Positions 12,501 to 17,068 of a stretch of 64,000 bases of DNA are shown piece after piece (positions within the stretch are counted from its first letter, which is position 1; every line of letters begins with the position of its first letter). The DNA is taken from the sequence record PQ724392.1. The stretch is one strand, 5' to 3'. The DNA is from a phage. The position numbers were made by a program, and so were the translations under genes. Below the pieces are notes generated by a model. The model was not told the origin of the DNA. It saw nothing but the letters and a program-made list of their open reading frames with translations, and ran no database searches.

Positions 12501-13280
12501 ATGGCAGTAGTAGGAATTCCTGGCTGGATTGGGACATCAGCAGTGGCTGAAACAGGTCAACGTTGGATGACAGCAGCTTCTAGAGAATTGCGTCTTGGTA
12601 ACCCATCTTGGATGTCGCAATTTGCTGGTCGGTCCCGTGAGATTATTCACACACTTGGAGCTGACCATAACTTTAATGGACAATGGTTCCGCGACCGTTG
12701 TTTTGAAGCCGGCGGTGCTCCTATAGTGTTTAATATCACAGGCAACTTAGTATCATATACTAAAGATGTTCCGTTGTTCTTTATGTACGGTGATACCCCT
12801 AACGAATATGTTACTTTGAATATTCATGGTGGTGTTCATATGTGGGGCCGAGGTGGCAACGGTACAGTAAATGGAAGCCCAGGCACTAATGGTGGTGACG
12901 TAATCCAAAATGATATTGGTGGACGACTTCGCATTTGGAATTATGGTGTGATAGCCTCCGGTGGTGGTGGCGGCGGTGCCGCATCATTACAGAATAGTTG
13001 GCCTGCAAATGCTACAGCAGGTGGCGGTGGCGGCAGACCATTTGGTCTCGGCGGCGGTGGTGTTAATTGGCCAGGCGGCAATGCTAGTTATGATGGTCCA
13101 GGTGGCGGTGGTAATGCAAACCAATTTGGCGGTGGCAATGGCGGTGATGCTGGTGGCGCTGGTGGCGCTGGATGGGGTAATAACTTATCCAGGTCGGGTG
13201 GTGGTGCTCCTGGTAGAGCAGTATTCGGTTCCTCCCCATCATGGGGCGCGACAGGCACTATCTACGGCTCATGGTTATAG
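12501..13280 (+). CDS. 38: tail fibre adhesin gp38 (T2-type, glycine-rich motifs)
   Basis: 259-aa ORF immediately after gp37; conserved N-terminal half followed by runs of GGGGG separated by short variable segments, as in T2-type gp38 adhesins. Confidence 0.8.
12957..13215 (+). repeat. glycine-rich motif repeats in gp38 (GGN-codon tracts)
   Basis: at least six runs of ggtggcggtgg-type sequence encoding GGGG(G) blocks separated by short variable segments. Confidence 0.7.
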
Positions 13281-13317: not shown

Positions 13318-13971
13318 ATGGAACCAAAAGTAGGAATATCAATACCCGACCTACTTTTTGGACTTCTTGATAGAATTTTTAAAGATAATGCGACCGGGAA
13401 AGTTGTTTTTTCCCGGGTACTAGTTATTGTTCTATTATTTTTAATGGCGGTAATCTGGTATAAAGGTGATGCAATTTTAGATGCGTACAGGGATGCTTCA
13501 TACGCCTCGTACACTGAAATGATAAGGCAAGACCAGGATAACAGATTTAAAATTGCAGCTATCGAGCAAATCCAGATAGTCCACTCGTCAAGTGGGGCAG
13601 ACTTTACAGCAATATATTCTTTTAGACCAACTAACCTTAACTACTTCGTGGATATGGTGGGATACGAGGGGATATTACCTGATACAGTCGATGAAAAAAA
13701 CTTGGGTGGGTTTCCAATAGATAAGACTTCAGCGGAATATTTGGCGGGGGTTAATGGTAATTATTTCGAATCCAGTACGGAATCTGTATTCTTACCAACA
13801 AAGAAAAAAAGCAGCTTTACATATATGTTCAGCTGCCCATTCTTTAATTTGGAAAACGTTTATGCAGGCACAGTCTCACTGTACTGGTATAAGCAAAAAC
13901 CCGACCTTGGTTTTGATAGGCTTTCTTCTATGTGTGGACAAGCAGGTCGTACGCTTGGGCGTACACGTTAG
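13318..13971 (+). CDS. t: holin T
   Basis: 217-aa ORF; DLLFGLLDRIFKDNATGKV, single N-terminal TM segment and FSCPFFNLENVYAGT.SLYWY match recalled T4 holin (218 aa); late promoter TATAAATA ~20 nt upstream. Confidence 0.9.
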   Translation: MEPKVGISIPDLLFGLLDRIFKDNATGKVVFSRVLVIVLLFLMAVIWYKGDAILDAYRDASYASYTEMIRQDQDNRFKIAAIEQIQIVHSSSGADFTAIYSFRPTNLNYFVDMVGYEGILPDTVDEKNLGGFPIDKTSAEYLAGVNGNYFESSTESVFLPTKKKSSFTYMFSCPFFNLENVYAGTVSLYWYKQKPDLGFDRLSSMCGQAGRTLGRTR

Positions 13972-14243
13972 AATCCGGAGGTATACATCATAAGATAACG
14001 GTGTATATCTTCGAATCCTTCGTTAAATTGTTCAATGATTTGTTCAATTTCATCTTCAGATAAACTTTTAAACAACTTGTTAAACGATACATTGTTTAAC
14101 TCATTCCCATTCTCATTTCTCAATCCCAACTCATTCAAAAACGCGATAAACACATCACGCTTCATCGTAATATCTTCCCGGTCGGTTTTAATCAAAATTG
14201 AAGTTATAGTAACAATTTCAGAAACGATTTCAAATTTAGTCAT
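13968..14243 (-). CDS. asiA: anti-sigma70 factor AsiA
   Basis: 91-aa ORF; ..VSEIVTITSILIK..REDI....FIAFLNE.G........N..SF.K...L..........FNEGFE...RYL.MYT matches recalled T4 AsiA (90 aa); convergent with t. Confidence 0.9.
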   Translation of the reverse strand: MTKFEIVSEIVTITSILIKTDREDITMKRDVFIAFLNELGLRNENGNELNNVSFNKLFKSLSEDEIEQIIEQFNEGFEDIHRYLMMYTSGF

Positions 14244-14555: not shown

Positions 14556-14834
14556 TTAGCTACCAGATTGTTCATGCAATTTCCTTAATTGATATTCAAG
14601 AGAACTGATAATTTCTTTATTAGTTGCAATATACATATCACGTAGGAAGGGTTTCAGACCTTCTCTAACTCTATACGTGTTATCACTAATATCCTTTATA
14701 TATTCATGGTCTAAAGCATCCCAAGCCGGCTGGTTAACATAAGTTCCCCAGTTATCTTCCATCATAGTGTTCAGACGTTTGATATGATTGATATGGGTTT
14801 CGATTGCATCAATCTGGAGTTGTTTAAGGTTCAT
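14556..14834 (-). CDS. arn: anti-restriction nuclease Arn-like protein
   Basis: 92-aa ORF at the T4 arn position (asiA-arn-...-motA); same length as T4 Arn and similar PAWDALD.EYI.D / KPFL.DMYIA.NK segments from memory. Confidence 0.65.
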   Translation of the reverse strand: MNLKQLQIDAIETHINHIKRLNTMMEDNWGTYVNQPAWDALDHEYIKDISDNTYRVREGLKPFLRDMYIATNKEIISSLEYQLRKLHEQSGS

Positions 14835-15445
14835 TAATAAAGGTCCTCTGAATAAAGTTCTTTTTCACTACCGCCACGTTCAATACGCACTTGATTTGCA
14901 TAAGTCGCAATAATCATTGCTTCTTCGCGGGTCCAGTAATTGCTGTACTGGTCAATGAATCCTTGATTATCACCACAAACATGGTCTGACACAAGTTTAT
15001 CACTTACTTGGTCAAGCACTTCTGCCATATCCTTGGAATAATGTCTGGCACCAGGAATAACCAGAGTCCCACCATCTTTTAACTTAAATCGGTTGGCGGC
15101 ACATACAATCCGTCGCTGATATTTTTCATTGTTATTCCAATGCGCAATCTGCCAACAGATTTCCGGGACTTCTTCCAGAATATCTTTTTCATCGCATGTG
15201 TATCCATGTGCTTTAAATTTTTCAGCGAGGCTTTTGGGGGTTTCACGCGATTCTGGTGCTGGTAACATTTCTAAACGAGTGATAAACGGATTCATTTCAC
15301 AATTACCTTCTTCATTATATTCGGTGTAATCACCGTATGCATGTAATTTAGCAGCGAGACTTTCAGGAGTCTCCCGAGAAAGAGCTTTATCTAACAAGGC
15401 CATACGGTCTTTAAAGGATAATGCTTTACCTTTTAATGGATTCAT
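14834..15445 (-). CDS. hypothetical protein with an internal tandem ~25-aa repeat
   Basis: 203-aa ORF; repeated segment [20 protein letters not shown] / [19 protein letters not shown]; no recognisable catalytic motif. Confidence 0.5.
15196..15393 (-). repeat. imperfect tandem duplication inside ORF 14834-15445
   Basis: two ~60-nt segments sharing cagcgag(g/a)ctt...(t/c)c(a/c)cg(c/a)ga and encoding the ESRETP.SLA.K..A.G.YT peptide repeat. Confidence 0.45.
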
Positions 15446-15789
15446 TTGAAAATCACCTTATAACCGTTATCTTTAGCGAATTCTTGAATTTTAGCGGCGG
15501 TTTCAATTAAATCACCTTTATAATAGGATGATAATTTAATATCAACTGTTTTGCCTTCGCCATACGAAGTTATATTCACTTTTTCCGTAAAAATAAGCTC
15601 AAGAAATCGCAATAGCTGCATACCAAATTCAAGAGTAACATTATCAATCTGGAGGTTAAGTTGATAAGTTTTCTTAATACCATTCACCAGGGCACAGCGC
15701 TCATCCCAAGCGTTACGTTGTTCTTCAATCAATTTAAGGGAATGACCTTCGCCATCCCAATTTAGTTCCATAGGAATCATTTGAACCAA
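15442..15789 (-). CDS. hypothetical protein
   Basis: 115-aa ORF, co-oriented and overlapping neighbours by a few nt (operon packing). Confidence 0.45.
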
Positions 15790-16109
15790 CCTTTAACACG
15801 TTGCCACAGACTTTTCTGTTGAGCTTTATTAACACCAATTGAGCGAATAACTGGTTGTGATTCCAGGTATTCTTTATAGTCAGCTTTATAGACTTCATAT
15901 GCTGCTGGAACAAAGGCCCCAATCGCCGCCATGAAGTTCTTGCGAGCACCAAATGGAGCTACTGCATCATCCTGGCGATGGATAAGATACTGACCAGCTT
16001 TGACCTTGACAATAGTCCCAAGGTAAGCGCCATGATACCAAACATCCCAACCCTCTTGAGTAGGTTCTACGCAAGCACGCAATTCATTAACAATATTCAG
16101 CTTATTCAT
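15777..16109 (-). CDS. hypothetical protein
   Basis: 110-aa ORF between arn region and motA; no motif recognised. Confidence 0.45.
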   Translation of the reverse strand: MNKLNIVNELRACVEPTQEGWDVWYHGAYLGTIVKVKAGQYLIHRQDDAVAPFGARKNFMAAIGAFVPAAYEVYKADYKEYLESQPVIRSIGVNKAQQKSLWQRVKGWFK

Positions 16110-16116
16110 AATTTCC

Positions 16117-16725
16117 TCACTTTAAGATGTTAATAACATGTTGAATGTTTTCAGTTGACATATGATTGTCAATGTAGGTATTCAATCCACCTACTTTAAC
16201 GCTAAATCCCACGTCTGTAAACTGTTTTACTATCTTTTGTTCAGTATTATACGCATGCACACGAATCTGACCATCACGACGTACATCAATCTGTTTTAAT
16301 GTCTTGATACGCTTGAACTTCACAATCAGATTGCTGCGGTCTTCTGAAATGCTCTTAAAGTCAATACCAATAGACAATAATTGCTCTTTGATATATTCTG
16401 CAGTCGCTTCCATTTCATCAGTCACACCGCGTTTTGTTCTTGTCTTCTTCACTTCCAGAAGGTCAGGATTATTTTCATTCGCCCACAGTTCAGCTGCATC
16501 CAGAATAAGGTCAACACCTTTTTCTGTAACCATCAAACCATCACCAGAAGCTTCAACATAGTTGTTATTCAACAATGTCTGCACGCTATCAATTGACGTG
16601 TTCTGCTGGCCTAAAACAACCTCAGGACGCACGAAGTTGTTTTTGTATACAAACACCAGAGCATTAACATCAGTCTCATGTAGAGCGTTCTGGGAGCATT
16701 TAACGATATAATTTAGCTTGTTCAT
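16117..16725 (-). CDS. motA: middle-promoter transcription activator MotA
   Basis: 202-aa ORF; SGDGL..TEKG.D.I..AAELWA.EN.P.LL..KK.T.K and C-terminal KQFTDVGFS.K...... resemble recalled T4 MotA (211 aa); synteny. Confidence 0.85.
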   Translation of the reverse strand: MNKLNYIVKCSQNALHETDVNALVFVYKNNFVRPEVVLGQQNTSIDSVQTLLNNNYVEASGDGLMVTEKGVDLILDAAELWANENNPDLLEVKKTRTKRGVTDEMEATAEYIKEQLLSIGIDFKSISEDRSNLIVKFKRIKTLKQIDVRRDGQIRVHAYNTEQKIVKQFTDVGFSVKVGGLNTYIDNHMSTENIQHVINILK

Positions 16726-17040: not shown

Positions 17041-17068
17041 TAAAATAAAAAGGACCCCGAAGGGTCCT
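17041..17068 (-). terminator. rho-independent terminator after gene 52 and its trailing small ORF
   Basis: minus strand GGACCC-TTCG-GGGTCC followed by TTTTTATTTT. Confidence 0.7.

Follow-up and report, generated by a model that had tools for sequence, protein, structure and literature searches.

The window considered here is a 64,000-nucleotide stretch of phage DNA (sequence record PQ724392.1) from a Gaprivervirus (Tevenvirinae) that is essentially Escherichia phage EAWsc9. Its minus strand carries, at positions 14834..15445, an open reading frame (ORF) of 203 amino acids that starts with ATG and ends with a stop codon at 14834-14836, as described in an initial annotation of this DNA, where the product appeared as a protein of unknown function with an internal tandem repeat. 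Judged by its matches, this ORF is an orthologue of the T4 gene arn.3 (Pfam T4_Y16D, PHROG 839) with an additional N-terminal module. The protein matches PHROG 839 with an E-value of 4.4e-77, and T4 Arn.3 (Y16D_BPT4, 152 amino acids) aligns by tblastn with 15295..14837 of the window (80% identity, E=1.7e-83), from residue 51 of the window protein onward only. PF26092, the T4_Y16D family named after T4 Arn.3, was precomputed on all 120 of the Arn.3-family homologues listed. As in T4, the gene lies between homologues of arn.4 and arn.2 inside the asiA-motA block, here with a 115-amino-acid ORF intercalated; the T4 protein has the same conserved C-terminal domain and an N-terminal module that we call type B, whereas the window protein has a 50-residue module of another type, type A, added in front (203 versus 152 amino acids). 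The gene is conserved among T-even phages and in many others: homologues were found by tblastn in 1567 of 50,697 phage records, and the 203-residue form in five of these 1567 (EAWsc9, ECML-359, pEC-M719-6WT.2, TH40 and TH41, with 99.5-100% identity), the protein being 100% identical in the first four.

From the N terminus, the protein comprises two copies of a short helical module and a C-terminal domain. Copy 1, the type-A module (residues 1-50, 15296..15445, minus strand), forms an intact two-helix hairpin similar to that of the antitoxin CmdA, with helices placed by AlphaFold2 (AF2) at residues 10-22 and 26-35 (predicted local distance difference test, pLDDT, about 91), in agreement with the helical nature ascribed to the units by the initial annotation. 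Copy 2, the type-B module (residues 51-88, 15182..15295, minus strand), shares about 80% nucleotide identity with Tequatrovirus arn.3; its first helix is degenerate, with a Pro-rich LPAPES stretch, and AF2 predicts the second helix (residues 69-78) only. AF2 predicts a disordered linker at residues 40-65, the pLDDT falling below 50 for residues 46-65. Each copy has its own translation start signals, AAGGTRA followed by a 7-nucleotide spacer and an ATG. The first Shine-Dalgarno sequence, AAGGTGA (15453..15459, minus strand), stands 7 nucleotides before the first ATG (15445..15443), which overlaps the TGA stop of the upstream 115-amino-acid ORF (ATGA), and the internal one, AAGGTAA (15303..15309, minus strand), stands 7 nucleotides before the ATG of M51 (15295..15293). 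Single-copy homologues that start at the Met equivalent to M51 are found in T4, in Gaprivervirus PSD2001 and in 8 of the 13 BASEL T-even phages; by this comparison, M51 is the ancestral start of type-B arn.3. A 203-amino-acid fusion initiated at the first ATG and a 153-amino-acid product initiated at M51 are both plausible.

The module proved to be related to a component of a known defence system. CmdTAC (PD-T4-9) is a toxin-antitoxin-chaperone (TAC) system that resides on P2-like prophages and aborts infection by Tevenvirinae (Vassallo 2022, 2024, Mets 2024). Its toxin, CmdT, acts as an ADP-ribosyltransferase on mRNA, and its antitoxin, CmdA, combines a pair of N-terminal helices with a disordered chaperone-addiction tail and, at the C terminus, an AA degron (PMC11618068). 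The phage capsid protein titrates the SecB-like chaperone CmdC, upon which CmdA is broken down by ClpXP and CmdT is released, an outcome that T4 escapes via mutations in Alt.-3 that stabilise CmdA (PMC11618068). PADLOC returned a match of residues 9-38 to PD-T4-9_B (E=2.5e-10) that covers positions 2-31 only of the 77 in the profile. Real cmdTAC loci were recovered using a published cloning primer as blastn query, from a P2-like prophage, and the recovered locus was confirmed by PADLOC as PD-T4-9 A, B and C (E=4e-97, 3e-38 and 7e-61, respectively). Residues 2-33 of CmdA (LSFEQRMALLNKALQQY[NT]PESLYEKLSSYPAY) align with the hairpin core of copy 1, residues 9-40 (15421..15326, minus strand; CmdA tblastn match with E=2e-7), with 20 of 32 residues identical for one CmdA variant and Smith-Waterman scores of 86-91 (z=15-17). 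The type-B modules of T4 and PSD2001 give z=8-10, and copy 2 of the window protein gives a weak signal (z=3.5-4.7).

Comparison of profiles led to the same relationship. A profile of the Arn.3 modules aligned with a CmdA profile in hhalign with a probability of 99.2% (E=2e-19), and a profile built from 23 Arn.3 modules only, searched against 1.84e9 proteins, gave 35 matches at E<=1e-3. Many of these matches are proteins of 50-110 amino acids that start with MLSFE.RMALL and end with ..AA, which is the CmdA-type architecture, and one is a read-through of the 3' end of cmdT into cmdA. The positions F, R, LL, L, TPE-L, L and Y are conserved in both Arn.3 modules and CmdA-type proteins; the CmdA signature MLSFExRMALL..AL...TPESL.EKL.SY, together with the helix pair, is present in copy 1 and weakly recognisable in copy 2. 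At the level of sequence, homology between the N-terminal module of Arn.3 and the N-terminal helical pair of CmdA is thus established; a literature search found no mention of it. As far as its distribution tells, this hairpin is a mobile module that is not confined to CmdA and Arn.3. When the 50-residue module alone was used in a word-indexed search, one fragment only was retrieved; comparisons of the module with plasmids (tblastn) and with E. coli genomes (blastn) gave no matches, and PADLOC detected no other mimicry of defence components among the neighbouring proteins of the arn block. Metagenomic proteins were also encountered in which the CmdA-like module is fused to other unrelated C- or N-terminal parts (P0124, P0125, P0127, P0129 and P0132, and further P0133, P0141-P0143, P0147 and P0148).

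The remainder of Arn.3 differs from that of CmdA. The T4_Y16D domain (residues ~89-203, 14837..15181, minus strand) is highly conserved and is predicted as an α/β fold with a pLDDT of 95-98, whereas CmdA continues into the disordered addiction tail that binds CmdC. CmdA-type proteins end in ..LAA, ..QAA or ..EAA, whereas Arn.3 ends in ...LYSEDLY, with no AA degron. An alignment of 64 sequences revealed that R110, A115, A116, R133, H134, Q160, G161, F162, D164, Y169 and R172 are invariant in the domain, and the window protein carries its conserved signature (G.RHYS ... DQGFIDQ...Y.tReEA..IA ... SEDLY). The domain is found alone in many phages, in forms of 113-125 amino acids, and elsewhere with several unrelated N-terminal extensions. 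Local searches of Pfam, NCBIfam, PDB sequences and PDB profiles gave no significant known fold or family for either part of the protein; in BFVD, the domain matched uncharacterised phage proteins and, weakly, a "large polyvalent protein associated domain" only, and no resemblance to ADP-ribosyltransferases was found. The genomic context differs as well: CmdA is encoded beside CmdT and CmdC, whereas Arn.3 is borne by a phage and fused to a folded T4_Y16D domain, and tblastn with CmdT and CmdC returned nothing below E=4 in the whole window, so that cmdTAC-like operon partners are absent from it.

The internal repeat from which the initial annotation had started is real. Smith-Waterman alignment of residues 1-50 with residues 51-203 scores 64, against 24.0±4.2 (maximum 52) for shuffled sequences, and none of 5000 shuffles reached this value. 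The two units of about 25 residues that had been described are present where they were placed, at residues 22-41 (15382..15323) and 65-83 (15253..15197), but the repeated unit is longer, begins at the initiator Met in each copy (MNPL.. and MNPF..) and, in the DNA, takes in the ribosome-binding site together with the ATG and the codons that follow it (repeat D2, 15435-15459 versus 15285-15309, 84% identity); an indel of 7 codons distinguishes the copies. The imperfect DNA duplication that was thought to encode the units fared less well, as identity within the coding part is only about 70% over 47 nucleotides (repeat D1), the local DNA score between the copies (25) lies within the range of codon shuffles (maximum 37) and Tandem Repeats Finder reported nothing for the repeat region. 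Given this weak similarity of the coding DNA, the repeat is not, on the sequence evidence, a recent in-gene duplication. The two units are less similar to one another than each is to a single-copy allele, a different one in each case, and two modules occur in one of 120 Arn.3 protein clusters, that of the window type. We considered and rejected a tandem-repeat binding protein of the solenoid type, as there are two units only, they derive from two alleles, one cluster in 120 has them and Tandem Repeats Finder was negative.

The origin of the two copies can be traced by comparison with related phages. Arn.3 of the Dhakavirus JS98 (162 amino acids) starts with a type-A module, and those of T4 and PSD2001 with a type-B module; the window protein consists of a type-A module (residues 1-47), four junction codons (GNCE) and a complete type-B protein. 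We performed a three-way DNA alignment of the window, PSD2001, which is its closest backbone relative, and Dhakaviruses. The window and PSD2001 have a common backbone, with arn.4 98.8% and the C-terminal domain 89-97% identical, whereas the 115-amino-acid ORF (15442..15789, minus strand) and the first 141 nucleotides of the type-A arn.3 are absent from PSD2001 and are 85-91% identical to Dhakaviruses, copy 1 sharing ~86-91% nucleotide identity with the 5' ends of Dhakavirus arn.3. The junction lies at 15296..15310 (minus strand): in blastn comparisons, Dhakavirus-like similarity ends at ~15309 and T4-type similarity resumes at ~15297. Its sequence reads ...GAATATAATGAAGA/AGGTAATTGTGAAATGAATCCG, the slash marking the join, and contains GAAGA(A)GG as a possible microhomology; in addition, the 18 nucleotides ahead of the internal ATG (AAGGTAATTGTGAAATGA) resemble the 3' end of the 115-amino-acid ORF (AAGGTGATTTTCAAATGA). 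As read from the alignment, a short microhomology served to fuse the 5' 141 nucleotides of a Dhakavirus-type arn.3, in frame, with a T4-type arn.3 that is complete; the type-A piece came together with the upstream 115-amino-acid gene, and the type-B allele still has the ribosome-binding site and start codon of its own. The arrangement looks like the product of unequal recombination between two diverged arn.3 alleles. No parental arrangement turned up in IMG/VR when it was searched for exact matches to the junction sequence.

Exchange at this locus appears to extend beyond the fusion. Among T-even alleles, the N-terminal modules average 65% identity versus 88% for the C-terminal domains, and 37 allele pairs have C-terminal domains at least 90% identical and yet modules less than 60% identical. 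Such pairs, in which near-identical domains bear very different modules, indicate that the module has been swapped between alleles. We read a faster-evolving, swapped module as the signature of an arms race, typical of an interface toward a variable external target. The 115-amino-acid ORF, annotated as "sporulation protein YqfC" in EAWsc9, had no significant match in Pfam, NCBIfam and PADLOC scans. Its N-terminus recurs as an N-terminal extension of Arn.3-family proteins of other phages (for example P0021, P0033, P0040 and P0059, and further P0082, P0089 and P0094), one such extension being identical to it, which suggests that recurrent deletions fuse this ORF and arn.3.

Taken together, the CmdA-like helices displayed on a stable domain, the lack of an addiction tail and a degron, and the dependence of TAC firing on the degradation of CmdA led us to propose, with a probability of roughly 40%, that Arn.3 mimics an antitoxin, resists degradation and targets mRNA ADP-ribosyltransferases of the CmdT type. 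The homology to CmdA points to a different class of target, the CmdTAC toxin, from the McrBC system considered in the initial annotation. When host CmdA is degraded in infection and the defence fires, Arn.3 would stand in for the lost antitoxin, presenting CmdA-like helices on a stably folded domain with neither tail nor degron; by binding, it would hold CmdT-type toxins, or others that share their antitoxin-docking surface, in an inactive state. For TAC systems, an antitoxin without the chaperone-addiction tail (ChAD) is chaperone-independent, the tail serving to destabilise the antitoxin and not itself neutralising the toxin, which is the task of the antitoxin's N-terminal part; by analogy, we infer that the helices of CmdA are the part that neutralises CmdT. 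In the window protein, copy 1 would supply an intact hairpin to a backbone whose type-B hairpin has a proline-disrupted first helix. Translation from the first ATG would yield the two-module protein of 203 residues, initiation at M51 could add the canonical form of 153 residues, and the C-terminal domain could be a scaffold or carry a second activity. An extension of this proposal, which we regard as doubtful, is that Arn.3 would be a modular anti-toxin-antitoxin family in which a swappable, fast-evolving hairpin docks CmdT-type toxins released in abortive infection while the T4_Y16D domain stabilises it or adds an activity, for example on the toxin or on ADP-ribosylated RNA, the two divergent hairpins stacked by recombination in the window phage widening the range of toxin alleles that it can neutralise.

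The proposed logic has a precedent in T4, whose protein Dmd neutralises RnlA and LsoA as a substitute for their antitoxins. There too, a stable phage protein replaces a labile host antitoxin and silences an abortive-infection toxin, but Dmd is not known to be homologous to the antitoxins that it replaces, whereas Arn.3 would be a mimic based on homology. The C-terminal extension mutants of T4 Alt.-3 (PMC11618068) are likewise a case of a T-even protein defeating CmdTAC at the antitoxin step; they stabilise host CmdA, whereas Arn.3 would replace it, and the two proteins have no sequence relationship.

Natural variation in sensitivity to CmdTAC bears on this proposal. According to Vassallo et al., Bas35 and Bas38 are the only Tevenvirinae of the BASEL collection that escape CmdTAC. 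For each of the 13 T-even phages in this collection, we took the Arn.3 sequence from the genome and compared the type of module with the reported sensitivity. All eight phages with a type-B Arn.3 are restricted, and the five with intact CmdA-like modules include the two escapers, Bas35 and Bas38 (loci L008 and L009, both with N-terminal modules that are not type B), and the restricted phages Bas36, Bas46 and Bas47, whose modules are similar. The association between module type and escape is suggestive at best, and several observations weigh against Arn.3 as an antitoxin mimic. Escape in two of five phages with an intact module versus none of eight with type B is not significant (Fisher ~0.13), and T4 is strongly restricted by CmdTAC although it has a type-B Arn.3. 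Bas36, Bas46 and Bas47 are reported as restricted despite their intact modules, so that possession of an intact hairpin clearly does not by itself ensure escape against this CmdT allele, and the escape of Bas35 and Bas38 could equally stem from variation of the capsid protein that acts as trigger. Moreover, the CmdTAC paper does not state explicitly that the helices of CmdA contact CmdT, a role drawn here from the TAC paradigm, and the occurrence of the module on other unrelated C-terminal parts means that it may be a generic one. Finally, the five fusion genomes are at least 99% identical, and selection for keeping the extra copy is therefore not assessable.

Some of these observations would fit a view in which the hairpin serves Arn.3 itself in a generic structural or regulatory way, for instance by capping the C-terminal domain, mediating dimerisation or helping the domain to fold, while the activity of the protein resides in that domain and is unrelated to CmdT; the likeness to CmdA would reflect common descent alone, by module shuffling among phages and prophages, and the tandem copy would be a neutral by-product of recombination. 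We consider it possible but somewhat unlikely. The far stronger conservation of the C-terminal domain, with its enzyme-like invariant R, H, Q, D and Y residues, its occurrence alone or behind several unrelated extensions, the presence of the CmdA-like module on other C-terminal parts and the restriction of phages with intact modules all speak for it, and the location of cmdTAC in P2-like prophages would make exchange with phages easy. On the other hand, module and CmdA are about 60% identical over 32 residues and agree in their conserved positions, which suggests that they share a constraint on binding and not the fold alone; the C-terminal domain resembles neither an ADP-ribosyltransferase nor any known fold, which leaves no obvious cis-partner equivalent to CmdT; and the module evolves faster and is swapped between alleles, as is typical of an interface to a variable external target. 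The same kind of reasoning applies to the added copy taken by itself, for which only the canonical 153-residue Arn.3 made from M51 might be functional, the upstream 150 nucleotides being a recombination scar that happens to be open in frame and is a harmless extension or hardly translated. The internal ATG keeps a Shine-Dalgarno sequence with the same 7-nucleotide spacing as the first, all single-copy type-B homologues start there, the fusion is confined to one narrow lineage, a stop-free in-frame junction across 12 nucleotides is not improbable by chance and AF2 predicts a disordered linker at residues 40-65. We nevertheless judge this reading unlikely, since the first ATG has the stronger Shine-Dalgarno sequence and an ATGA overlap with the upstream stop that favours translational coupling, and copy 1 is the better-preserved hairpin; furthermore, all five genomes, which were deposited independently, retain its 50 codons intact, and the protein is unaffected by the few nucleotide differences seen in ECML-359 and pEC-M719-6WT.2.

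The initial annotation had viewed the protein as one of repeated helical units that engage a host factor in stoichiometric fashion, possibly for anti-restriction against McrBC, and this view now appears highly improbable. It had in its favour the helices predicted by AF2, the "anti-restriction nuclease" label borne by many database records of homologues and the location of the gene, which indeed lies within the T-even early/middle accessory block; according to a June 2026 preprint, the homologous operon of T2, arn.4-arn, gives rise to an abundant middle transcript, and a part in counter-defence is suspected for its products. However, the two units come from two alleles in a one-off in-frame fusion, found in five of 1567 records and one of 120 clusters, and not from a repeat expansion. 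The synteny of the locus with the asiA-motA block of T4 held, but arn, which had been taken as the adjacent gene, is absent: tblastn with T4 Arn gave no homologue across the 64-kb window (best E=0.84, for a match outside the 203-residue ORF), the neighbour is arn.2 and no similarity to Arn was detected in the protein, so that the rationale for McrBC falls away. Since the "anti-restriction nuclease" label is also found on homologues of arn.2 and arn.4, and the preprint states that the functions of arn.1-arn.4 are still unknown, we take these labels as annotation spill-over from arn.

On the extended, modular reading, a phage mimic homologous to the TAC antitoxin from which it derives would be on record for the first time, and a function would be assigned to a T4 accessory gene that has long lacked one. 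If the antitoxin mimic proposed here is correct, it would also account for the diversity of alleles at the N-termini of Arn.3, extend the known counter-defences of phages by an antitoxin mimic based on homology and could help to predict which therapeutic T-even phages escape TAC systems. The homology to CmdA makes arn.3 a testable candidate inhibitor of CmdTAC-like defence, which is the one known to restrict Tevenvirinae by mRNA ADP-ribosylation. Even if this idea fails, the locus provides a clear case of mosaic recombination yielding an in-frame partial gene duplication at a hypervariable phage locus.

The gene order around arn.3 is gp38 - t holin - asiA - small ORFs - arn.2 - 203-residue ORF - 115-residue ORF - arn.4 - motA - gp52, with homologues of asiA at 13968-14243, of arn.2 at 14556-14834 (minus strand, 92 amino acids; T4 Arn.2 tblastn E=1e-18), of arn.4 at 15777-16109 and of motA at 16117-16725 (minus strand). 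The MotA homologue shares just 33% identity with that of T4. With a strict pattern of the T4 MotA box plus -10, no convincing middle promoter was found near the arn.4-arn.2 cluster, and a generic promoter and terminator scan near the operon was uninformative; in view of the divergence of MotA and the lack of a strict match, this phage group may use a MotA box other than that of T4. At the gp38 position, upstream of the holin, an ORF of 259 amino acids (12501-13280, plus strand) contains long glycine-rich runs (GGGGGG, GGxGG), the ORF at this position in JS98 being annotated as a T6-like tail fiber adhesin; the numerous short ORFs on both strands around 12501-13280 are artefacts of GC-rich repeats. 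Finally, the small ORF after gp52 and an ORF of 75 amino acids have between them a perfect GC-rich hairpin (AGGACCC-CGAA-GGGTCCT, 17051-17068) that, with the T-run behind it on the minus strand, resembles a terminator.

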